From IMG/VR virus record IMGVR_UViG_3300029220_000012: 45,172 nucleotides of DNA. The stretch is one strand, 5' to 3'. Each line of letters opens with the position of its first letter. Positions within the stretch are counted from its first letter, which is position 1. A program made the translations under genes and the position numbers. Origin of the DNA: a virus. This document shows, one piece after another, positions 2,884 through 45,172 of this stretch. The notes beneath the pieces were generated by a model. The model was given only the letters and a program-made list of their open reading frames with translations. It did no database searches and was not told the origin of the DNA.

Positions 2884-3225
2884 TTATTGGTTCCGCAGGT
2901 TTTTGGGATTTGAAAGTAAATCCTCAAAATATTCACGAGCGCGCTGTTGCGCTGCAGGACTAAGTTTGTTGTACAGTTCTTGAATATCATTTTTAGGCTT
3001 TTCTGGGGTATCCCATCCCATTAGTTGGGCAGGAGTAACGTTAAAAATTTCTGCCAAGAGTATAACCATATCATAGGGGATATTTTTAATATCCCCAGAT
3101 TCATACCTTTGCAAAGTTGCTTTATTTGGCAATTTACCTATTTTAGATTTAATTATTTGAGCTAAATCTGTAAGAGATAATCCGTGTTGTTCACGGTATT
3201 TTCTTATATTTTCTCCTATTTCCAT
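2884..3225 (-). CDS. XRE-family HTH repressor (CI-like, no peptidase domain)
   Basis: HTH IRKYREQHGLSLTDLAQII...LQRYESG. Divergent from a Cro-like gene across an operator-rich region. Confidence 0.85.
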   Translation of the reverse strand: MEIGENIRKYREQHGLSLTDLAQIIKSKIGKLPNKATLQRYESGDIKNIPYDMVILLAEIFNVTPAQLMGWDTPEKPKNDIQELYNKLSPAAQQRAREYFEDLLSNPKNLRNQ

Positions 3226-3295: not shown

Positions 3296-3383
3296 CAAGG
3301 AATCGACTTTTTGCAAAAAAAGTTGCGCAATATGCGTTGACAAATAGCTTTAGTCATGGTATTATAGTTGCATAAAATGCAAC
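3280..3383. promoter_or_regulatory. Operator cluster of GTTGC-N7-GCAAC type dyads
   Basis: 3367-3383 is the perfect dyad GTTGCATAAAATGCAAC. 3280-3296 (TTTGCGCAAAATGCAAC) and 3322-3338 (GTTGCGCAATATGCGTT) are degenerate copies. All lie between the divergent cI-like and cro-like genes. Confidence 0.65.
3337..3365 (+). promoter_or_regulatory. Early rightward promoter (TTGACA-17 bp-TATTAT)
   Basis: Consensus -35, 17-bp spacer. The perfect operator 3367-3383 covers the expected transcription start. Confidence 0.7.
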
Positions 3384-4280: not shown

Positions 4281-4591
4281 TTAGAACTAAAACCGAGATT
4301 TTCCTTCAGCGTTTGAACCTTGAAATGCAGAGCCTGAATAAATACGCAGACTTGCTGGAACGCTGGAATGAGGACGACAACCAAGATGAGGTCCTGCAGG
4401 AGGCGAAGCTTGATGTCATTGACCGTATCGGTTCAACGCTCAAAGAGATGCGTGAGCTGCAGTCTCATGAATGGTCTGTTATGTACAAGGCTCTGCAAGA
4501 TTCCGCAGAAAAGAATGCTGCTGATGGTTTCGGTATGCCAAAAGAAGGCTCCGGCATGCCGTCAGATGGCGCTTGCAAGGAGGCTGAGTAA
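4277..4591 (+). CDS. Hypothetical acidic helical protein
   Basis: ORF coupled to the upstream gene by ATGA. No recognisable motif. Confidence 0.65.
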   Translation: MIRTKTEIFLQRLNLEMQSLNKYADLLERWNEDDNQDEVLQEAKLDVIDRIGSTLKEMRELQSHEWSVMYKALQDSAEKNAADGFGMPKEGSGMPSDGACKEAE

Positions 4592-4592
4592 T

Positions 4593-5084
4593 ATGGCTAA
4601 CATCTATGAGCTTAAAGATCAAATCAAAGCCTGCATCCAACTGGATGAAGAGCACGTGGTTGACACCGATGACGGCGAAATCCTGAACCTGCAGCAATTC
4701 GAGGCTCTGCAGATGGAGCGCGATGCCAAGGTCGAAGGCCTGGCTTGTTACATCAAAAACAAGCTTGCCGATGCGGAGGCCATCTACGCTGAGATTGACG
4801 TCCTTAGTCAACGTGCAGCCATCATGAAGAAGGAAGCCGAGCGCTGCAAGGCTTATCTGGCCGGTGCATTGTACGGCGAGAAGTTTGAAACTCCCCGCTG
4901 CAAGATTAGCTGGCGCAAGTCGGAAATCTGCAACGTGCTGTCCTTGGAAGCAATTCCTGATGAATACAAGCGCACCAAGGTTACTGTTGATGCTGACAAG
5001 ACGGCAATCAAGAAGGCCATCAAGAGCGGCATGGAGATTCCGGGCGCTGAAGTAATCCAAAAACTGAACATGACTTTGAAGTAA
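4593..5084 (+). CDS. Gp157-like protein (siphovirus Gp157 family resemblance)
   Basis: AAGGAGG 8 nt upstream of ATG 4593, so the track start at 4368 is rejected. Coiled-coil protein upstream of the ATPase/SSB block, as in Gp157-type modules. Confidence 0.6.
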   Translation: MANIYELKDQIKACIQLDEEHVVDTDDGEILNLQQFEALQMERDAKVEGLACYIKNKLADAEAIYAEIDVLSQRAAIMKKEAERCKAYLAGALYGEKFETPRCKISWRKSEICNVLSLEAIPDEYKRTKVTVDADKTAIKKAIKSGMEIPGAEVIQKLNMTLK

Positions 5085-12610: not shown

Positions 12611-13094
12611 CACTGTTGTAGCGACGCTGGCTGCCTTAAATAGCCAGCCTAAGCCGCAGGATTGCTACAAGGCAACGGAAGCACGGCTGTATGCTTACTC
12701 GACGCTGCGCGCGAACATTGAGCAGTACAAGCTTGATATCCGTGACCTGAAGACGGAGCGTGTCACAGAAAAATCTAAAGACATTACCTGCTGGGGCGGC
12801 GCAAGTTCTCGCCTGACGCCCGAAGAGAAGCAGCAGGCACGCATTATGGCTGTAGAAGTTAAGCTGGCGCGTGATCAGGCGGAAGTTGATAAAATTGACC
12901 GCATCTTGAACAGGCTGGAAGCAAGCGAGGATGCGGTGGCGGTAGACCTTATCCGTCAGGCGTATTTTTTCTGCGTGCCTTTGGATGATATTGCGCTGCG
13001 TGCAGGTGTGTCGCTCTCGACCATCCAGCGCAGGCGTACGCGCCTGGTGCGGCAGCTAGCGTTGATGTTATATGGAGCGGAGGCGTTGATGTAA
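12585..13094 (+). CDS. Sigma-70 region-4-like transcriptional regulator (RinA/ArpU-type late activator candidate)
   Basis: C-terminal HTH DDIALRAGVSLSTIQRRRTRLVRQL. GTG 12585 lies 8 nt after AGGAGG. Confidence 0.6.
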   Translation: MDNKKLIHDTVVATLAALNSQPKPQDCYKATEARLYAYSTLRANIEQYKLDIRDLKTERVTEKSKDITCWGGASSRLTPEEKQQARIMAVEVKLARDQAEVDKIDRILNRLEASEDAVAVDLIRQAYFFCVPLDDIALRAGVSLSTIQRRRTRLVRQLALMLYGAEALM

Positions 13095-13333
13095 TGACAA
13101 TTCTTTCACGTGAACGTATCTTGAAGACGAAAGTCACTTGCAAGACTAGCCGCATCTGCCAGCGTCAGCGGCAGTGGGCAACTCTTAGAGTGGTACAAAA
13201 ATCCACGGCTATTGGACCTAGCTTTATTTCCCAATTAATCCGCAAGCACCGCGAAGTTGTATTACTTCGCAGCGCTCGTGGCTGCTGTCAAGTTTTTGCT
13301 TATTGCATAACGGAGGTGACACAAATATTATGA
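13094..13333 (+). CDS. Hypothetical basic 79-aa protein
   Basis: TAATG overlap at the start and ATGA overlap at the end suggest translational coupling. Composition is odd (Arg/Cys-rich). Confidence 0.45.
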   Translation: MTILSRERILKTKVTCKTSRICQRQRQWATLRVVQKSTAIGPSFISQLIRKHREVVLLRSARGCCQVFAYCITEVTQIL

Positions 13334-13788: not shown

Positions 13789-14214
13789 ATGAGTAAAAAT
13801 CTTCTCCCAGAAATCGCTAAGATGCTGGATGTAGAGATGTACGAAAAATTTAAAATCGAGGGCATGAGCTCTGACCTGGTTTTCCGAATCGGTGTAGACG
13901 GACTCGAAATGGAACGTTTTGACTATGCTGAGGATGACCGTATATGGGTGACTCTTGCTTCGTGCAATTTTGTTGATTTGTTGACTGGTAAGGCAAAAAT
14001 TGTTAAACTGCCGTGGAAGCCTGCTTATCGTCAGAAGTATTGGACTTTTGGCTTAAAAGATGGTATTTGGGTAGTTGTACCGAGAGAGTGGGAAGATTAT
14101 CCTGCTGAAATTCTTTTAGCAGACAAAGGATGGACATATCGCACACGTGAAGAAGCCTGCGCCGCTTTGCCTGGAGTGGCGAAAGAAATAGGTGTTGAGT
14201 TTATAGTTAAGTAG
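13789..14214 (+). CDS. Hypothetical protein
   Basis: RBS GAGAGGTG. 141-aa ORF. Confidence 0.7.
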   Translation: MSKNLLPEIAKMLDVEMYEKFKIEGMSSDLVFRIGVDGLEMERFDYAEDDRIWVTLASCNFVDLLTGKAKIVKLPWKPAYRQKYWTFGLKDGIWVVVPREWEDYPAEILLADKGWTYRTREEACAALPGVAKEIGVEFIVK

Positions 14215-14312
14215 GACTCTAAATTTATAAAGCAGGCACCTACTCAACGTTTCCTGATGAAATTCACGATGAAGTCGACATCATTTTTCCGGAAGGCTGC
14301 CACGAAGTAAAA

Positions 14313-14453
14313 ATGCGTGACGACACCGCCGCCATCGAGTGGCCGGACGGACACATTACATTGTCCACCGAAATTTTCACGGAACACCGCGGTGGTACGG
14401 CAGTGCCCTATGTGGTTGACTGCAGCGGTCAATTCCCTAAAAAATTTACTTGA
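14313..14453 (+). CDS. Possible short ORF or gene remnant (open frame from 14223 without a canonical start)
   Basis: The frame 14223-14453 reads protein-like (FPDEIHDEVDIIFPEGCHEVKMRDDTAAIEWPDGHITLSTEIF...). The only ATG is internal at 14313 and has a weak RBS. Confidence 0.3.
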   Translation: MRDDTAAIEWPDGHITLSTEIFTEHRGGTAVPYVVDCSGQFPKKFT

Positions 14454-14468
14454 AAGCTAAAAAATGAC

Positions 14469-14497
14469 TTGAAGCAGTGAAAAAAAAGCGGTATAAT
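14469..14497 (+). promoter_or_regulatory. Promoter P6 (TTGAAG-17 bp-TATAAT, preceded by AAAATGAC)
   Basis: Near-consensus hexamers. Shares the ATGACTTG motif of the promoter family. Confidence 0.7.
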
Positions 14498-14503
14498 ATA
14501 ACC

Positions 14504-14635
14504 ACGGAGAAGTGTCGATAAAAGCGGCATTCGCCTGCCACTTCTCGTTGCGAAGCGGTGCGTATTTTGACTGAATGCGCACCGCTTTACTATATTGTGT
14601 ATGTAGCGTCTGGCTTTTAGCCGGGCGCTTTTTTT
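14504..14635 (+). ncRNA. Candidate ~130-nt structured RNA or leader, class unknown
   Basis: No credible ORF or RBS. Hairpins at 14507-14546 (8 bp, GAGAAGTG/CACTTCTC) and 14553-14587 (12 bp). Terminator at the 3' end. Confidence 0.45.
14606..14635 (+). terminator. Intrinsic terminator
   Basis: Stem GCGTCTGGC/GCCGGGCGC (two G-U pairs), 5-nt loop, then T7 (14629-14635). Confidence 0.75.
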
Positions 14636-14719
14636 ATGCCCGGAAGCCGTAACCTAAGGGACGGAACATCCCTTATTATTCTCAAATCCTCAGCGGTAGT
14701 CCGGGCACCAATAAATGAC

Positions 14720-14748
14720 TTGCAATTATCGCGGGAGTGAGTTAACAT
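14720..14748 (+). promoter_or_regulatory. Promoter P2 (TTGCAA-17 bp-TAACAT)
   Basis: Family member with AAATGAC upstream and GAGT before the -10. The -10 overlaps ATG 14747. Confidence 0.55.
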
Positions 14749-15766
14749 GCTTATAAGACCTTTAATTATTGCTGCGAGAATTTTGGATGAAGATTATCCG
14801 AAAGACCCGAATCCTGAAAATTGGCGTACTATCAGTGGTGCAAAAGTGCATCTGAACGAAAAAGGTCAGATTGACGGTGGTGCTGGCAGTAAGTTTAATA
14901 AGAAAAAATTCGGCAGCAATTTTAGTGCTCAAGAAGGTTTTTCTGGAGAATATGCAGCGCCGAACTCTTCTGAGGAAAAATCGCCTATCAAAAAAGCAGC
15001 TTCTGTCTTTACTGAAGCATCTGTACAGCCATACAATGCCCAGGAGAGTAATTATCCGTTCCGTAAATCAAATTACACTAAGGCGCATAAGGATACTGCT
15101 GTGTGGTGCAAATCCATGGAAGAATCGAAGAAAAAATTTGATGCGCAAGCTCTTACTGTCTGGGAATCTGCAAATCATGAAGAACGTGAAGCTATTAAAA
15201 AATATACGGCCGAGTATGAGCAATTTAATGACCCTTTGCGCGGTTATGAATACGGGACTGGCCAATATAAAGGTGTAGGGAGTATTGACTTTGAGAATAT
15301 TGGCAATAATAGTTATGGTAAATTAAAACCTGGCGAAGCTAGAGACCTAATCACAAATATGACCAACTACATTGACCGTAGTGCTTTTGATGAGGATATC
15401 TGGCTGCAGCGTGGTTGCAGTTTTATAGGCATGGATAAATTTTTCAATCTCCGAAAGCCGATGCAAGACTACACTCTTGATGAGCTGAGAGCTGAAATTT
15501 TAGGTACTAAACCCACAGAACATGGTTTCATGTCTTGTGGCGCTGCCAAAGGTACAGGCTTTGATAAAAAACCAGTTATTCTTAATATTTATGCTCCAGC
15601 AGGAACTAAAATGGCTTATACTGCTAATTTTTCTATTTTCGAAGAAGAAAATGAAATGGTTTTGCAGCGCGGCACGCAGTTTCGCGTTGCAAAAGTAGAA
15701 GAAAAACCTGGCGAAGGCTTCTTTATTGACCTTGAGGTCGTTGGTTACAATATACAGAAAGTGTAG
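14747..15766 (+). CDS. Mono-ADP-ribosyltransferase, C3/VIP2-like (R-S-ExE class)
   Basis: Arg motif WLQRGCSF, STS-position FMSCG, ExE motif EENEMVLQRG. Start ambiguous: ATG 14747 (SD GGGAG 14733-14737) lies inside P2, and TTG 14783 is the first start reachable from a P2 transcript. Confidence 0.85.
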   Translation: MLIRPLIIAARILDEDYPKDPNPENWRTISGAKVHLNEKGQIDGGAGSKFNKKKFGSNFSAQEGFSGEYAAPNSSEEKSPIKKAASVFTEASVQPYNAQESNYPFRKSNYTKAHKDTAVWCKSMEESKKKFDAQALTVWESANHEEREAIKKYTAEYEQFNDPLRGYEYGTGQYKGVGSIDFENIGNNSYGKLKPGEARDLITNMTNYIDRSAFDEDIWLQRGCSFIGMDKFFNLRKPMQDYTLDELRAEILGTKPTEHGFMSCGAAKGTGFDKKPVILNIYAPAGTKMAYTANFSIFEEENEMVLQRGTQFRVAKVEEKPGEGFFIDLEVVGYNIQKV

Positions 15767-15775
15767 GTAAAAATC

Positions 15776-16006
15776 ATGGGATTATATGAACGTCATGCAG
15801 ACGAATTGTTGAGTGATAATACTCATAATGCCGGGTACGAGCAGTGTAAGGAGTGCGTTTATTCCGGTAAGCCGGGAACGGCTGCTTATAGCCGTTGCAT
15901 CTGTGACAAGTATCCATTGAGCGATGGTGATGATCAATGGGCAACCAGCAAGCCTGATGGTATTGAAGATGGCTCGTTAAGATGCAAATTTAGAAAAGAC
16001 CGTTAA
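15776..16006 (+). CDS. 76-aa Cys-rich (zinc-binding-like) protein
   Basis: CKEC...CICDKY...C pattern. 10 nt downstream of the ADPRT stop. Confidence 0.6.
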   Translation: MGLYERHADELLSDNTHNAGYEQCKECVYSGKPGTAAYSRCICDKYPLSDGDDQWATSKPDGIEDGSLRCKFRKDR

Positions 16007-16020
16007 TGTTAAATAAATGA

Positions 16021-16049
16021 CTTGAATGTTTTAAGTATTAGAGTTAACA
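16021..16049 (+). promoter_or_regulatory. Promoter P3 (TTGAAT-17 bp-TAACAT)
   Basis: AAATAAATGACTTG is identical to P4. GAGT before the -10. Confidence 0.55.
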
Positions 16050-16062
16050 TAACAACAATCAA

Positions 16063-16248
16063 GTGAAAGGTTGTGATTATGTTATGGAAAAACAGATTTA
16101 TTACGATTATTTAGAAGAGCTGCGTCAGTCTGGCGTAACGAATATGTTCGGTGCTGCTCCGTATCTCATGCGTGAATTTGATTTGAGTTATGATGAAGCA
16201 TCAAAAATACTTAGCGACTGGATGGGTAGCTACAAGCAACCAGAATAA
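16063..16248 (+). CDS. Hypothetical small protein (start GTG 16063 or ATG 16084)
   Basis: ORF between P3 and a terminator. Core sequence YLEELRQSGVTNMFGAAPYLMREF. Confidence 0.6.
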   Translation: MKGCDYVMEKQIYYDYLEELRQSGVTNMFGAAPYLMREFDLSYDEASKILSDWMGSYKQPE

Positions 16249-16275
16249 CTTACTATCAAAAAAATCACTAACGTA

Positions 16276-16310
16276 AACCTCGAGCTTAACGGCTCGGGGT
16301 TTTTCTGTTT
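16276..16310 (+). terminator. Intrinsic terminator
   Basis: Stem AACCTCGAGC/GCTCGGGGTT with a 6-nt loop, followed by TTTTTCTGTTT. Confidence 0.7.
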
Positions 16311-16322
16311 CCGGAGGTAATT

Positions 16323-17624
16323 ATGAAAATCATTGATATGCCCATCGGCGATGTGATCCCGTATAAAAACAATCCGCGGCGCAATGATGCAGCCGTGAAG
16401 CCGGTTATGGAATCTCTGAAGGAGTTCGGCTGGAAGCAGCCTATTGTTATCGACAAGAATAATGTTATCGTCTGTGGGCACACCCGCTTGCGTGCCGCTA
16501 AACGACTTAAGATGAAGACTGTGCCGTGCGTGATGGCGGATGACCTTACGCCGGAGCAGATTAAAGCGTTCCGGCTGGCGGATAATAAAACCGCCGAGTT
16601 TGCAAGCTGGGACATGGATATGCTCAACAGCGAGCTGCTCGACATCAAAGGTATAGACATGGGCGACTTTGGCTTCGACATGCCGGAGCCTGAACCGGAG
16701 GAGGATGCTTTTGATGTGGATACAGCGCATGAGGAAGCTGCTAAGAATCCTGTAACTACGCCGGGCACGCTGTACCAGCTCGGGAACCATCGCTTATTAT
16801 GTGGCGATTCAACAAATCGTACTGATGTAGCACGTTTATTGGGGGGGCAAATGGTTGACATGGTGTTTACCGATCCTCCCTATAATGTCGCTTACCAAGG
16901 CGGCACAAAAGACAAGCTCACCATTAAAAACGATTCCATGAGTGAGGCTGAATTCAAAAACTTTTTAGATGCAGTGTTTGATAATTATTTTGCGGCGATG
17001 AAGCCCGGCGCGTCCTTTTACGTGTGCTACGCTAGTCGCAGTGCAGTCGAGTTCCGACAGGCTATTGTTGATGCCGGTCTGCTGCTGAAGCAGGACCTTG
17101 TCTGGTGCAAGAACACGTTTACTCTGGGAAGGCAGGACTACCAATGGCAGCATGAGCCTATCCTTTACGGCTGGAAGCCTGGCGCGAAGCACCGCTTTTT
17201 TGGCGGTCGTAAGCTGTCAACAGTTATCCCAGACAACTATCCGGTGGAGGTTGGCTACGATGCCGATGGGCATCAGCTCATCCACATCAGCATCGGGCTT
17301 AAGACCGTCTGTCTGCGTGCCGATAACGTAGAGGCTGTGGACACAGAAGAGGTTAACAGCGTAATCCATGTTGACAAGCCCACGCGCAACGCCGAGCATC
17401 CCACCATGAAGCCGATTGCCCTCTGTGCTAAGTGCATCAAGAATAGCTGCCAGCAAGGTGATGCTGTGCTTGATTTGTTTGGCGGCTCTGGCTCCACGCT
17501 CATTGCCTGCGAGCAAATCAACCGCCAATGCTACAGCATGGAGCTTGATCCTGTGTACTGCGATGTCATCGTTAAGCGTTGGGAAGCTCTCACCGGCAGG
17601 AAGGCCGAGGTAATCGGTGGCTAA
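16323..17624 (+). CDS. DNA methyltransferase (N6-A/N4-C type) with N-terminal ParB-like nuclease domain
   Basis: ParB-like VCGHTRLRAAKRL. Catalytic FTDPPYNV. SAM-binding VLDLFGGSGST. Confidence 0.9.
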   Translation: MKIIDMPIGDVIPYKNNPRRNDAAVKPVMESLKEFGWKQPIVIDKNNVIVCGHTRLRAAKRLKMKTVPCVMADDLTPEQIKAFRLADNKTAEFASWDMDMLNSELLDIKGIDMGDFGFDMPEPEPEEDAFDVDTAHEEAAKNPVTTPGTLYQLGNHRLLCGDSTNRTDVARLLGGQMVDMVFTDPPYNVAYQGGTKDKLTIKNDSMSEAEFKNFLDAVFDNYFAAMKPGASFYVCYASRSAVEFRQAIVDAGLLLKQDLVWCKNTFTLGRQDYQWQHEPILYGWKPGAKHRFFGGRKLSTVIPDNYPVEVGYDADGHQLIHISIGLKTVCLRADNVEAVDTEEVNSVIHVDKPTRNAEHPTMKPIALCAKCIKNSCQQGDAVLDLFGGSGSTLIACEQINRQCYSMELDPVYCDVIVKRWEALTGRKAEVIGG

Positions 17625-19379: not shown

Positions 19380-20847
19380 AAGAAAACGCAGGCGCGCCCT
19401 TGACAAAGCTCCTGAGCCGCAGCCAATACGCAGCAGGGCGCTCGACGCGTTTAGTAACGTACTGGCTCGTTTGGGTGCTGGTACTCCGAATCTGTTGGAA
19501 GGCACGGAGTACAGTCTGCAGCGCATGTCGCGTGATTTCAACACTCTAAATGCTCTCTACCGTGAGAGCTGGATTGTCCGTCGTATCATCGACGTTATCC
19601 CGGCGGACATGCTTAAAAATTGGATAACGATTACGAGCGGTCTGGATCCCGATGTAGAGAAGCGGCTCAGTCTTACTTTGCGCCGTACTCAGCTCATTGA
19701 CAAGCTTAAGCGTGGCATGCAGTGGGGCAGGCTCTACGGTGGCGCGTTAGGCGTGATGCTGGTCAAACACCAAGGCTACGACCTTAGCCAACCGCTGCAG
19801 CTTGACTGGATAATGCCTGGCGATTTCGCAGGGCTGCTTATCTTCGACCGCTGGAACGGAGTTAACCCATCCAGCGAACTCATCGAAGATATTAGTGATC
19901 CTGATTACGGTTTTCCAAAATATTACACTGTGACTGATCCTGCCGGTGGTGGCTCCGTGAAGATTCATCATAGCAGGGTAGTTCGTTTTACTGGTAACGA
20001 ACTACCTTTTTGGGAGGAAATTGCCGAGATGCAGTGGGGTGCGTCGGTCGTTGAGTCTATTTTTGATGAGCTGCGTAAGCGTGACAATGTAAGCTGGAAC
20101 ATTGCGCAGTTGACCTTCATGGCGAACATCCGCGTGCTTAAAATGCAGGACTTAGGTCAGCTTCTGGCGGCAACGGACAACGAGTCGCAGGCTGAGCTGC
20201 TGCGAACGCTGGAAGCGCAGAACATGCTGCTGAACAATATGGGCATGCAGGTTATGGATGCTGCAGATGGTCTGGAAACACACCAGTATACTTTCGGCGG
20301 CCTTGCTGACTGCTATCAGCAGTTTATCATGGACATCAGCGGCGCTGCTGAAATTCCGGTGACGCGTCTGTTCGGGCGCTCTCCCTCTGGCCTTAATGCT
20401 ACAGGCGAGAGTGACCTACAGAACTACTACGACATGATAGCTGAGAAGCAGGAGTCTTATCTGCGTCCTATCTTGAACAAAGTGCTTCCGCCGTTCATCA
20501 TCTCGACACTAGGCAGCCTGCCTGATGACTTTGATTTTGAATTCGACCCGGTTGCAGAGCCTACCGACAAAGAGCGCGCCGACCTTGCCAAGTGTGGCAC
20601 AGACAATGTTGTGGCTGCCTACAATGCTGGTCTTATCTCTCAGCGCACTGCTCTGAAGGAGTTGAAGCAGCAGAGCGAGCGCACCGGTGTCTGGACGAAC
20701 ATCACCGATGAGGACATCGAGCGCGCATCTGACTCTGTGGAGCCGCCTGGCGAGATGGGAGGCATGTTTGGCGACATGGGCGGTGGCGAGGCTGCTGGTG
20801 CTGTTGGTGTTGAACCTCAGCAAAATAAACCGCCTGAATCTGAATAA
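19372..20847 (+). CDS. Portal protein
   Basis: 491 aa, overlaps the TerL stop by 8 nt. Position and size. Resembles DUF1073-type portals from memory. Confidence 0.8.
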   Translation: MSKRKRRRALDKAPEPQPIRSRALDAFSNVLARLGAGTPNLLEGTEYSLQRMSRDFNTLNALYRESWIVRRIIDVIPADMLKNWITITSGLDPDVEKRLSLTLRRTQLIDKLKRGMQWGRLYGGALGVMLVKHQGYDLSQPLQLDWIMPGDFAGLLIFDRWNGVNPSSELIEDISDPDYGFPKYYTVTDPAGGGSVKIHHSRVVRFTGNELPFWEEIAEMQWGASVVESIFDELRKRDNVSWNIAQLTFMANIRVLKMQDLGQLLAATDNESQAELLRTLEAQNMLLNNMGMQVMDAADGLETHQYTFGGLADCYQQFIMDISGAAEIPVTRLFGRSPSGLNATGESDLQNYYDMIAEKQESYLRPILNKVLPPFIISTLGSLPDDFDFEFDPVAEPTDKERADLAKCGTDNVVAAYNAGLISQRTALKELKQQSERTGVWTNITDEDIERASDSVEPPGEMGGMFGDMGGGEAAGAVGVEPQQNKPPESE

Positions 20848-20852
20848 ATGAC

Positions 20853-20881
20853 TTGCAATAATTATACATGAGAGTTAATAT
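20853..20881 (+). promoter_or_regulatory. Promoter P4 (TTGCAA-17 bp-TAATAT)
   Basis: Starts at the portal stop codon (TAAATGACTTGCAA). GAGT before the -10. GGAGG and ATG 20913 follow 32 nt later. Confidence 0.55.
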
Positions 20882-20912
20882 GTACACACTAAAAATTACG
20901 GAGGTTAGTGTC

Positions 20913-21710
20913 ATGGATAAAACTAAACTTAACCTGGAACGCTTGCGTGCTTATGATGCTGAATGGGAAGAAGATAAGCACCCGCGTGCTGAAAACGGAC
21001 AGTTCACTTCAGGTAGTGGCAGTGCTGGTGGCGGAACTGAAAGCGGTAGTAAGTACGGCTACAGTCGTTCTGAGCAGCATGTTGCCAGTAAAATGGAAGA
21101 ATGGGGCAATGAGCAAGGAAACATTGCTGCACTTGAAGCTGCCGATGCTTTCCGTGATGCGCGTGAAGATGAAAATGATATGCGTGAAGTCTTGAAATCT
21201 GTACGTCAGCATTTAGTAGAAAACGAAGATGACATTCGTGGTTATGATGAAAATCCCAAAAATTTTGACAAGGTTATGGAACAGCTGGATGATATGGAGT
21301 CTATGCTTAATGACCAAGATACTTATGAATTCAAGCACGGTGAAATTAAATCTCCGCTCCGTCAGGCTGCTGAGGCGGTGCAGGGCGGCGATGGCAGGCT
21401 TAAAGGTTACAAGGGCTTGAGCTTTACACAGGAAACCAGCGAGGCTGATTCTGGCACTCCTGCCGGCGAGGTACATAATTTCATTGTTGGCAACCTTAAA
21501 GGCAAGGAACCGACGAAGGAAAATGTAACGGCTGCGTGCAAGCAGGTAGTAAATATGCTGAATGACGATATTAAATATCTGAGTGAGCGCGCTGCCACAG
21601 CTAGACGTTATGGCAATGAACAGGCTGCTAAGGAAGGGGAAGCAAATATTGAAAAGCAGCAACAAAGAATACAAGCTGCTTATGAGGTTACAATGGGTTT
21701 TAGTAAATGA
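20913..21710 (+). CDS. Acidic hypothetical protein inserted between portal and MuF-like genes
   Basis: RBS ACGGAGG before ATG 20913, so the track start at 20868 lies inside the promoter. N-terminal EEDKHPRAENGQFTSG motif. ATGA coupling into the next gene. Confidence 0.75.
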   Translation: MDKTKLNLERLRAYDAEWEEDKHPRAENGQFTSGSGSAGGGTESGSKYGYSRSEQHVASKMEEWGNEQGNIAALEAADAFRDAREDENDMREVLKSVRQHLVENEDDIRGYDENPKNFDKVMEQLDDMESMLNDQDTYEFKHGEIKSPLRQAAEAVQGGDGRLKGYKGLSFTQETSEADSGTPAGEVHNFIVGNLKGKEPTKENVTAACKQVVNMLNDDIKYLSERAATARRYGNEQAAKEGEANIEKQQQRIQAAYEVTMGFSK

Positions 21711-42314: not shown

Positions 42315-42355
42315 TGATTGATTGGAAGGTAGTGATATCTTAGGAGGTCTTGTGT

Positions 42356-42589
42356 ATGGATGTCACTCGTAAGCGAGCGCGTGCGTGGCTGCGTATGTGC
42401 TCACGAATCGAACTTGACCGTGCCATGGAAGAAGCACGGCTTACGGAGCAGCAGCGGGAAGTCATCGAGTTAATGTTTACCCGAGGATTGTCCGTGGTTG
42501 CCATCAAATTACGCTGTAATATGGACGAGAGTACAGTAAAACGTATCCTTGCCCGCTCTTACGACAAAATCTACAATGTCATCATGTAA
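42356..42589 (+). CDS. Small sigma-70 region-4-like HTH regulator
   Basis: AGGAGG 7 nt before ATG 42356. LTEQQREVIELMFTRGLSVVAIKLRCNMDESTVKRILARS. Confidence 0.6.
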   Translation: MDVTRKRARAWLRMCSRIELDRAMEEARLTEQQREVIELMFTRGLSVVAIKLRCNMDESTVKRILARSYDKIYNVIM

Positions 42590-44334: not shown

Positions 44335-44378
44335 TTATGCGGTATAGTCTTTAATGATTATACCGCATAATTTTATTT
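44335..44378 (+). terminator. Intrinsic terminator
   Basis: 12-bp stem TTATGCGGTATA/TATACCGCATAA, then TTTTATTT. Confidence 0.75.
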
Positions 44379-44396
44379 AAAATTTAAATTTATGAC

Positions 44397-44425
44397 TTGC
44401 AATAATCAAAAAGTAGAGTTAATAT
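44397..44425 (+). promoter_or_regulatory. Promoter P5 (TTGCAA-17 bp-TAATAT)
   Basis: TTTATGACTTGCAAT upstream and GAGT before the -10. 34 nt upstream of ATG 44459. Confidence 0.55.
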
Positions 44426-44458: not shown

Positions 44459-44707
44459 ATGAAAATTATTGATGTTATGCAACAATGGAATGATGATTGC
44501 AATGATTCTTTTCAAATGCTGGCTGGTGAATATTTTTTTGAACAACTCGAATACGATTGCAGCGAAATTGAAGCTTTGAAAGCTACAAAATCGTATCTGG
44601 AAAAATTCACTGAGGCCGATTTTGCCGAGCTCATCGGTGGAAAAGATGCTTGGCTGGAAGCGCTAAGAACAATAGAAATACTTTTAGGGGGCGAGAACCA
44701 TGACTAA
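44459..44707 (+). CDS. Hypothetical acidic 82-aa protein
   Basis: RBS GAAAGGTGG. First gene of a two-gene unit. Confidence 0.65.
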   Translation: MKIIDVMQQWNDDCNDSFQMLAGEYFFEQLEYDCSEIEALKATKSYLEKFTEADFAELIGGKDAWLEALRTIEILLGGENHD

Positions 44708-44933
44708 ACGTGAAATCGAAACTTTGAAGAAAGGTTATCAAAGAAAATGCATGATAGCAAGAGGACGCAGAAATGCTAATCCTGAAGGTGAAGCTTACGC
44801 TGAGGCTGAATCCGAACGCATCGGCTATCTGCATGCAGCTATGGAACTGATGGAAGTCGGAAAACGTCAAGGCAGCTCCCGCCACATCATCGATGAATGG
44901 GAAAAGGAAATAAGTTTTGACAGCAGATCCTGA
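44700..44933 (+). CDS. Hypothetical 77-aa protein
   Basis: 8-nt overlap with the upstream ORF. A terminator follows. Confidence 0.6.
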   Translation: MTKREIETLKKGYQRKCMIARGRRNANPEGEAYAEAESERIGYLHAAMELMEVGKRQGSSRHIIDEWEKEISFDSRS

Positions 44934-44940
44934 ATCCCTC

Positions 44941-44975
44941 ACCGCTAACTAAAATTTAGTTAGCGGTTTTATTTT
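44941..44975 (+). terminator. Intrinsic terminator
   Basis: 12-bp stem ACCGCTAACTAA/TTAGTTAGCGGT with a 3-nt loop, then TTTTATTTT. Confidence 0.8.
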
Positions 44976-45073: not shown

Positions 45074-45172
45074 GGGGATTTATGCCTTTTGGGACTGCGG
45101 TCTAAAAATGGTCTTGAAAACTAGCGAAGGTGCAAGCCTTCCGTGGGTTCGAATCCCACCCTTTCCGCCATT
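45074..45172. repeat. Terminal direct repeat, copy 2 (tRNA-Ser-like fragment at 45108-45170)
   Basis: Identical to 1-99. Confidence 0.95.

Follow-up and report, generated by a model that had tools for sequence, protein, structure and literature searches.

The window analysed here, that is, the whole 45,172-nt stretch of the virus record IMGVR_UViG_3300029220_000012 from IMG/VR, is a complete 45-kb Phascolarctobacterium prophage with six co-directional promoter-like sites (P1 to P6). We hold with moderate confidence that these sites are copies of one portable and highly specified promoter module, built in the register of the primary sigma factor (sigma-A), read by the host polymerase and widespread in mobile elements of Bacillota. 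This view builds on a motif that is enriched in the window, strict in its geometry and spread over unrelated mobile elements, and on cassettes with visible boundaries and mosaic contents among relatives; that the sites are active at all, and under which holoenzyme and at what stage, we infer from these. All six sites have the frame TTGnnn-17-TAnnAT on the + strand:

P1, -35 at 239-244 and -10 at 262-267, + strand: TTGCAT-17-TAACAT.
P6, -35 at 14469-14474 and -10 at 14492-14497, whole hybrid promoter at 14440-14497, + strand: upstream block joined to a canonical -10, TATAAT.
P2, -35 at 14720-14725 and -10 at 14743-14748, full element at 14713-14748, + strand: AAATGAC-TTGCAA-17-(GAGT)TAACAT.
P3, -35 at 16022-16027 and -10 at 16045-16050, full element at 16015-16050, + strand: AAATGAC-TTGAAT-17-(GAGT)TAACAT.
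P4 (the site at which the initial annotation placed its finding), -35 at 20853-20858 and -10 at 20876-20881, full element at 20846-20881, + strand: AAATGAC-TTGCAA-17-(AGAGT)TAATAT.
P5, -35 at 44397-44402 and -10 at 44420-44425, full element at 44390-44425, + strand: TTATGAC-TTGCAA-17-(AGAGT)TAATAT.

The upstream block ATGACTTG and the -10 block GAGTTAAYAT have five copies each in the window, every one of them in register and on the + strand, and the composite of the two, ATGACTTG-N16-GAGTTAAYAT, occurs four times (P2, P3, P4 and P5). Of this composite, P1 keeps the -10 block only, which is complete (tGAGTTAACAT) and accompanied by TCTGC in place of ATGAC before the -35, a variant kept in the relatives L005 and L017 (L numbers are our handles for the loci compared). 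P6 keeps the upstream block only, in two copies (AAAAATTTACTTGAA and AAAAAATGACTTGAA, with 19 nt between them). TTG at the -35, A-11 and T-7 at the -10 and the 17-bp spacer are present in six of the six sites. In 100 dinucleotide-preserving shuffles of the window the composite was found 0.10 ± 0.30 times, with three mismatches allowed, as against four times in the window itself; the motif does not recur at similar frequency in shuffled sequence, and a chance origin of the six sites is excluded. The initial annotation had described the six sites with their hexamers and spacers, ATGAC 5' of five of the -35 boxes and GAGT 5' of five of the -10 boxes, and all of these are present as described. Its coordinates agree with ours for P1, P2, P4, P5 and P6 and are one base low for P3, which starts at 16022. 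The run that it gave as identical in P3 and P4 is indeed shared, but is 13 nt long rather than 14 and is present in P2 as well (AATAAATGACTTG).

Searched for exactly, the composite was found in 99 IMG/VR stretches (116 matches), compared with five stretches for the reversed pattern, five with the gap set to N15 and one with N17, against the 99 for N16; all three controls were thus no commoner than chance would give. Four of the five N15 stretches contain one coding-looking sequence, and the fifth is a P5 copy with a 1-nt deletion. In a set of species-representative genomes, the exact composite was present in at least 120 stretches, almost all of them from Bacillota among the matches listed. 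Clustering of the motif copies on the positions left unspecified by the search pattern gave 49 families, or 40 once chance-looking matches to coding sequence outside Bacillota were dropped. Positions that the search had left free were conserved across these families: A before GAGT in 37 of 40, the two A residues before ATGAC in 29 and 33 of 40, and C or A followed by A/T A/T after TTG, together with a G-poor and CA-rich leader; the spacers between the blocks are unconstrained in sequence. When one half of the pattern was fixed and the other left free, the upstream half was ATGAC in 132 of 151 distinct sites (variants being mostly ATAAC), and the -10 half had GAGT in 132 of 138. Hosts include Lachnospiraceae, Oscillospiraceae, Paenibacillus, Tepidibacillus, Erysipelotrichales, Negativicutes and a few Elusimicrobia. 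A literature search with motif strings returned unrelated primers only, and we found no earlier description of the motif in the literature searched. A Paenibacillus-type copy had no match in INPHARED, and another copy matched only a terminase gene in PLSDB.

The sites are always oriented as the downstream gene, are mostly intergenic and often follow directly on a terminator; 20-50 nt further on comes either a Shine-Dalgarno sequence with its start codon or a structured RNA, beginning with its 5' stem. We regard it as highly improbable that the two blocks are instead repressor operators, recombination or packaging sites, or the relic of a repeat, with an incidental resemblance to promoters. Such a view could appeal to the overlap of P2 with a Shine-Dalgarno sequence and start codon, to the occurrence of GA[C/G]TT[G/A] in both blocks 22 bp apart, and to the inverted repeat TGACTTG..CAAGTCA in the spacers of a few families (L019, L036). 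It is at odds with the constant orientation, placement and distances just described, with conserved positions that are exactly TTG, A-11 and T-7, with the free spacers, and with the presence of one motif in elements that have unrelated recombinases and packaging systems.

Over about 40 families, the consensus consists of an A-rich stretch and ATGAC from -44 to -36, TTG(C/A)(A/T)(A/T) as the -35, an invariant 17-bp spacer, AGAGT from -17 to -13, TAAYAT as the -10, and a G-poor, CA-rich leader with a strong Shine-Dalgarno sequence 20-35 nt downstream. Either block can be joined to a canonical partner: the upstream block to a canonical -10 (TATAAT in P6; TGgTACAAT in L023, L038 and L076), and the -10 block AGAGTTAAYAT to a canonical -35, TTGACA or TTGACT, at 17 bp (L207, L120). 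Variant -10 blocks keep A-11 and T-7. Given these hybrids and the kept bases, the register is therefore TTGnnn for the -35 and TAAYAT for the -10, and as far as sequence can tell the pattern argues that the host primary sigma would read the core of the motif. We also count for this register that the phage has a canonical early promoter, TTGACA-17-TGnTATTAT (3337-3365). A register in the style of extracytoplasmic function (ECF) sigmas (GAC ... GTT) was rejected, with a spacing of 21 nt in every copy and hybrids that carry canonical hexamers; in ECF promoters the distance from the -35 AAC to the -10 CGT/GTT is usually 16-18 nt.

The same distance bears on whether an alternative host sigma, or a host regulator conserved across Bacillota, reads the motif, so that mobile elements would sense the state of the host (e.g. 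stress or stationary phase). Strict spacing, high conservation and contexts restricted to mobile elements among the matches listed would be expected of such a system, as would the many host families without a shared element-encoded regulator. We nevertheless consider it quite improbable, since GAC and GTT lie 21 nt apart rather than the usual ECF 16-18, the hybrids with canonical sigma-A hexamers at 17 bp have primary-sigma geometry, and the hosts include non-sporulating Negativicutes and Elusimicrobia. To our knowledge, the motif also corresponds to none of the consensus sequences established for Bacillota sigmas (sigma-B, D, E, F, G, H, K, L or ECF types).

Under the sigma-A reading, host RNA polymerase with its primary sigma would recognise TTG and TAAYAT (through A-11 and T-7), G at -14 in AGAGT would act as a partial extended -10, and the AAAA-ATG stretch would form a proximal subsite, similar to that of an upstream promoter (UP) element, for the alpha subunit. 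The proximal UP-subsite consensus is AAAAAARNR, which the A-rich stretch and ATG of the motif fit. The unstructured leader would allow efficient translation in any host, and the module, needing nothing from the element that carries it, could travel with cassettes. In this prophage it would head the att-proximal morons of P1 and P5, the small P3 cassette and the putative virion-cargo gene of P4 after the portal gene, and half of it would have been grafted onto the promoter of a late leader RNA (P6).

The units behind P1, P3, P4 and P5 lie between the two ends of the window, which form a perfect 99-bp direct repeat (1-99 = 45074-45172) and are presumably the attachment sites attL and attR. The repeat finishes in a tRNA/tmRNA-like 3' arm (GGTTCGAATCCCACCCTTTCCGCCA), and ARAGORN called no gene. 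The features concerned are:

167-190, + strand: intrinsic terminator 5' of P1, a 9-bp stem followed by a T-tract.
295-564, + strand: P1 cargo, an 89-residue Cys-rich protein with no family match.
570-589: bidirectional terminator after the P1 cargo.
16084-16248, + strand: P3 cargo, a 55-residue protein starting at ATG 16084.
16275-16302, + strand: terminator after the P3 cargo.
20913-21710, + strand: P4 cargo, a 265-residue protein with the N-terminal motif W-E-E-D-KHPR-A-E-NGQF.
44335-44370, + strand: terminator that ends the post-lysis gene cluster, just 5' of P5.
44459-44707 and 44700-44933, + strand: P5 cargo, two small acidic proteins next to attR.
44941-44967, + strand: terminator after the P5 cargo.

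For these four sites the start codon follows the -10 by about 27-33 nt, close to what the initial annotation had reported, and its statement that the downstream units are AT-rich is likewise correct: cargo GC content is 39-46%, versus 52-56% in the core genes for integrase, methylase, large terminase subunit (terL), portal and MuF. The terminator at 167-190 insulates the P1 unit from the att side, and the methylase gene begins at 16323, 20 nt past the terminator of the P3 unit. P4 begins on the stop codon of the portal gene (20845-20847), and relatives have a T-tract terminator just 5' of it; the P4 cargo overlaps the start of MuF (21707), with no terminator after the unit. Overall, the P1, P3, P5 and P6 units are bounded by terminators, those of P1 and P5 being also closely preceded by one, whereas the P2 and P4 units have no downstream terminator.

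Dozens of close relatives are present in IMG/VR, and their terL, portal and MuF genes are 95-100% identical to those of the window. While these core genes are so well conserved, the cargo of P2, P4 and P5 is 63-100% identical, truncated or replaced, and that of P4 is hypervariable (68-100% identity, truncated, or replaced). P5 is kept in more than 15 relatives, the relatives L226-L228 have the same P5 promoter with different cargo, and in relatives the P5 and P1 positions hold other genes behind an unchanged promoter. By analogy, the variability of these cassettes can be called the classical moron pattern. The initial annotation had proposed either a portable promoter-plus-cargo format (morons) or a dedicated phage regulon. 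The first half of that proposal finds support in the terminators, the AT-rich cargo, the cargo swaps and the occurrence of the same promoter in unrelated mobile elements; the regulon half is not supported, as set out below. A motif W-(D/E)-E-x-KHPR-x-x-NGQF-x-x-G-G is common to the P4 cargo (20913-21100) and an alternative cargo of the P2 slot (L015/L031/L038), and the segment NPENWRTISGAKVHL of the ADP-ribosyltransferase next to P2 is related to this KHPR..NGQF N-terminal motif. Our guess is that these N-termini are of a capsid-targeting or packaged-effector kind, and that the P2 and P4 products may be packaged virion cargo and not proteins of lysogenic conversion.

Outside this phage group the motif precedes genes of very different elements, and its place before transposase, recombinase and integrase genes speaks for host polymerase being sufficient. 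IS110-family transposases preceded by a structured non-coding RNA lie behind it in L139, L141 and L202, and it was found in IS110 elements of several subfamilies and genera, each time 5' of the non-coding RNA and the transposase. Other genes behind the motif encode a DDE_5 transposase (L149), large serine recombinases (L009, L019, L036), a tyrosine integrase (L152) and, in phages, amidoligase, Nmad4, DUF6809 proteins and other small proteins. Five unrelated phages have it just 5' of the terminase (L024, L067, L094, L120, L130); in L120 the motif is at 4413, followed by a gene for 64 residues and then by TerL at 4723, with no terminator between. In IS110 elements the promoter is internal, and the 60-260 nt upstream of it are conserved among copies and across genera, which rules out that IS110 had inserted into a promoter and taken its -35 from the target. 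Rfam returned no family at threshold for the IS110 non-coding RNA. Segments AAATAACTTG and GAGTTAACGC of this upstream RNA (bridge-RNA loop) resemble the two blocks of the promoter driving it. IS110-family units also occur in same-orientation arrays, 3.1-3.5 kb apart, in L139, L146, L160, L192 (Lacrimispora xylanisolvens CP070896, 3.976-4.008 Mb) and other Lacrimispora/Anaerocolumna loci. In a group of Clostridia phages (L094, L120, L130, L067, L009, L107), GTGTAGTATAT stands about 20 nt 5' of the motif and GTGTACAC at the start of the leader, and the P4 leader of the window begins with GTACACAC; elements of the GTGTAGTATAT/GTGTACAC type might resemble operators in function and control the core promoter.

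P2 and P6 depart from this simple arrangement, and the features around them are:

14504-14636, + strand: structured leader or small RNA behind P6, about 130 nt.
14552-14588 and 14605-14629, + strand: terminators of the P6 RNA.
14747-15766, + strand: ADP-ribosyltransferase next to P2 (PF03496, E 1.4e-20).
15776-16006, + strand: 76-residue Cys-rich protein, also next to P2.

The P2 spacer contains a GGAG Shine-Dalgarno sequence, and the start codon ATG 14747 lies within the -10 box, an overlap that had already been pointed out in the initial annotation. Because the frame starts inside the -10, P2 is not a simple promoter of the abutting frame. Some relatives have a protein with the KHPR..NGQF motif in the P2 slot instead of the ADP-ribosyltransferase, and the N-terminal peptide M-L-I-R/K-P/Y-L-I/L-I/L-A-A-R is kept across the two cargo families through synonymous changes. 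Considering both the position of ATG 14747 and this conserved peptide, the P2-slot protein is therefore translated from a longer transcript, which on sequence grounds would presumably come from P6 and read through two terminators. A leaderless start at P2 was rejected, there being no -10 at the right distance from ATG 14747. The first 14 residues of the ADP-ribosyltransferase (window 14739-14790) are also conserved in an unrelated cargo protein in the same slot of relatives.

All close relatives have kept the RNA behind P6, which we take to be the late leader of the phage, rather than an insert. The initial annotation had every copy of the motif heading an inserted unit, and this does not apply to P6, with its conserved leader RNA, nor to P2, with a frame that starts inside the -10. 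In relatives (L015-L099) the P6 RNA has one of two alternative promoters, either the upstream block with TATAAT or two TTCACAAAG repeats with TGgTATAAT. Rfam gave no family at threshold for this RNA, only weak matches at chance level, and its first 20 or so nt resemble those of a distant relative, L222, a likeness that is suggestive only. The RNA includes two to three terminators, followed by a long-range pairing GCCCGGA...TCCGGGC before the first late gene, a layout that recalls, as a possible parallel, a late leader with read-through or antitermination control. Upstream, an open reading frame (ORF) of 46 codons (14312-14452), below the size cut of the ORF list, fills the seemingly non-coding gap before P6, its stop codon lying within the first copy of the doubled upstream block; the gene before it, partly duplicated, seems to be its source (repeat 14100-14113 / 14252-14265).

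Several observations weigh against the sigma-A reading. The information content of the motif and the strictness of its spacing are far above those of ordinary primary-sigma promoters, and high information with strict spacing is typical of alternative sigmas or activator-dependent promoters. Among the exact matches listed, the fetched stretches with readable downstream context showed a mobile element or phage and no housekeeping gene, which is weak evidence. At P2 the -10 box contains the start of the conserved reading frame. In several unrelated phages neither another promoter nor a terminator separates the motif from the terminase gene, and a constitutive promoter in that place would leave late genes on in lysogens. 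Transcription from P4 would run on into MuF and the head genes in the same way.

The window encodes two candidates for a phage factor:

12576-13094, + strand: gp12576, 172 residues, predicted Ltr-type late activator and candidate trans-acting factor.
42350-42589, + strand: gp42350, 79 residues, a sigma-70 region-4 domain only, second candidate trans-acting factor.

The AlphaFold model of gp12576 (mean predicted local distance difference test, pLDDT, 83) has a long helical hairpin followed by a sigma-4-like domain. This C-terminal domain superposes on ECF sigma region-4 and -35-binding domains with template modelling (TM) scores of 0.6-0.77, and the model has no sigma-2 domain; judged by this model, gp12576 is an Ltr-type late activator and not a complete sigma. 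The second candidate heads the post-lysis cluster, 1.8 kb 5' of P5. No nearby sigma with both sigma-2 and sigma-4 was found, gp12576 having the hairpin and sigma-4 only and gp42350 region 4 only. It is possible, though doubtful, that host sigma-A reads the -10 while one of these proteins reads the upstream block AAATGACTTG and recruits or remodels the polymerase, so that the six units fire together, most likely late; the copies in insertion sequences (IS) and integrase loci would then depend on basal activity, or profit from these factors once a phage or integrative and conjugative element (ICE) becomes active. Beyond the superposition of the gp12576 C-terminus, the invariant spacing, the high information content and, among the matches listed, the restriction to mobile elements speak for this arrangement, as does the resemblance of AT[G/A]ACTT to the ECF -35 GGAACTT. 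P6, P2 and P3 lie between the ltr-like gene and the gene for the small terminase subunit (terS), the upstream block is doubled at P6, and the motif is just 5' of the terminase in L067, L094, L120, L130 and L024, an unrelated phage that has a gene for a DUF1492/LtrB protein in the same position as gp12576. In three serine-recombinase contexts (L009, L014, L019), genes for region-4-like helix-turn-helix proteins are directly 5' of the motif.

Other results speak against this arrangement. IS110 and DDE insertion sequences hold the motif internally and encode no regulator, and of 142 small ORFs around it in 24 unrelated loci, a Pfam scan assigned sigma region 4 to 3 only. The nearest copy (P6) is 1.4 kb downstream of gp12576, and P6 alone has a doubled upstream block. 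Phages with distant gp12576 homologues (37-49% identity) have no copy of the motif; there four (T/G)TGTCC direct repeats come immediately after the gene, which itself stands right before terS, with an extended -10 behind them (L220 10528-10600, L222 10528-10610, spacings of about 11-13 bp), a layout that matches published Ltr binding sites (PMC3753634). Phages with identical Ltr C-termini can have either version of the P6 promoter, which rules out that Ltr specificity co-varies with the upstream repeats of P6, and a fall of Ltr identity to 71% leaves the motif as it is. A hidden Markov model of the gp12576 family recovered only window-type phages and a weak match in L024/L045. For gp42350, phmmer found close relatives only, too few distant homologues for an analysis of co-occurrence, and L224 keeps a gp42350 homologue with no motif within 10 kb downstream. 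The specific factor and dedicated phage regulon of the initial annotation are thus not supported, given the motif's presence in IS110, DDE and integrase contexts without a regulator of their own, a gp12576 that has sigma-4 only, the distant-homologue phages without the motif, and the combination of either block with a canonical sigma-A hexamer. The gp12576 coding sequence closes with two copies, 24 nt apart, of a 13-nt direct repeat, GCGTTGATGT(T/A)AT (window 13059-13095), and behind these stands ATGACA-17-TATCTT; the repeat could be the Ltr site of this phage, or merely a repeated ALM peptide.

In a broader form, which we rate as unlikely, the motif would mark a transcription programme specific to mobile elements across Bacillota, in which small sigma-4-only or Ltr-like proteins read ATGACTTG in place of, or beside, host sigma region 4. 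If so, phage cargo and late genes, integrases and IS110 bridge-RNA/transposase units would be co-activated in the presence of any such protein, as one regulon across different elements, with trans-activation between co-resident elements.

Further features of the prophage are:

600-1682, - strand: tyrosine integrase.
2884-3225, - strand: CI-like repressor.

These are accompanied by replication genes, the methylase, terS, terL, portal and MuF. Close homologues of the regulator gp12576 are named in the sources as Phascolarctobacterium succinatutens proteins, and the host is therefore a gut Negativicute. A megablast search with 10 kb of the window found no match in INPHARED, and Rfam found no family at threshold anywhere in the window. 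A contig in an Escherichia coli isolate bin (L185, CAVCLW010000033.1) contains a P2-type promoter with cargo typical of the Phascolarctobacterium phage group and is probably mis-binned. The phage group is abundant in human-gut metatranscriptomes.

If host polymerase alone suffices, as the sigma-A reading has it, promoter, unstructured leader and strong ribosome-binding site would together form a ready-made, Bacillota-wide expression cassette. This would explain how add-on genes (toxins, anti-defence enzymes, integrases, transposases) stay expressible after moves between distant hosts. The motif, with some 21 specified bases at constant distances, would also serve as a sequence tag by which to find cargo genes and the limits of cassettes in the genomes of gut phages and ICEs, and likewise IS110 bridge-RNA promoters in Gram-positive bacteria. 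If a shared sigma-4-like factor is needed instead, the motif would tie together the regulation of unrelated mobile elements that reside in one cell.

Among known systems, the cassettes come closest to morons, which are reportedly autonomous promoter-gene-terminator cassettes of lambdoid and temperate phages (Juhala et al. and Hendrix et al., both 2000, are said to have described them). Like morons, they are extra genes between conserved modules or at att, with a promoter-like site of their own, a terminator (P1, P3 and P5), deviant base composition and variable presence among close relatives. Unlike morons, all cassettes here have one highly specified promoter, which is common also to unrelated phages, insertion sequences and integrases in other hosts, and P2 and P4, which lie inside the late region, are without a terminator. 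The promoter itself can be compared with primary-sigma promoters that have a UP element and a -16 or extended -10, as reportedly characterised by Estrem et al. in 1999, Helmann in 1995, and Voskuil and Chambliss in 1998. It resembles these in TTG, the 17-bp spacer, A-11, T-7, G-14, the A-rich -46 to -40 and the canonical hybrids, but the conserved bases beside its hexamers are ATGAC and AGAGT, where Bacillota promoters have TRTG. With AGAGT, moreover, the -10 is TAAYAT and never TATAAT, and both conservation and spacing are much stricter than in ordinary sigma promoters.

Similarity to Ltr late promoters (RinA, ArpU, LtrA-C; PMC3753634, PMC3152322) lies in the several motif copies between gp12576 and terS and in the DUF1492/LtrB protein encoded by L024. 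In contrast to those promoters, the motif is bipartite, at least 1.4 kb from the gene and without co-variation with Ltr, and it is absent from phages with distant gp12576 homologues and present in elements without Ltr. Finally, as in the IS110 bridge-RNA promoter (Durrant et al. 2024, PMC11208160), the motif in Clostridia and Bacilli stands directly 5' of a structured RNA of about 170-190 nt and an IS110 DEDD transposase. In IS621, a sigma-70 promoter is rebuilt across the junction of right end and left end (RE-LE) of the excised circle (PMC11208160), whereas in the IS110 elements with the motif, which lie outside the window, both blocks are present together inside the integrated element.

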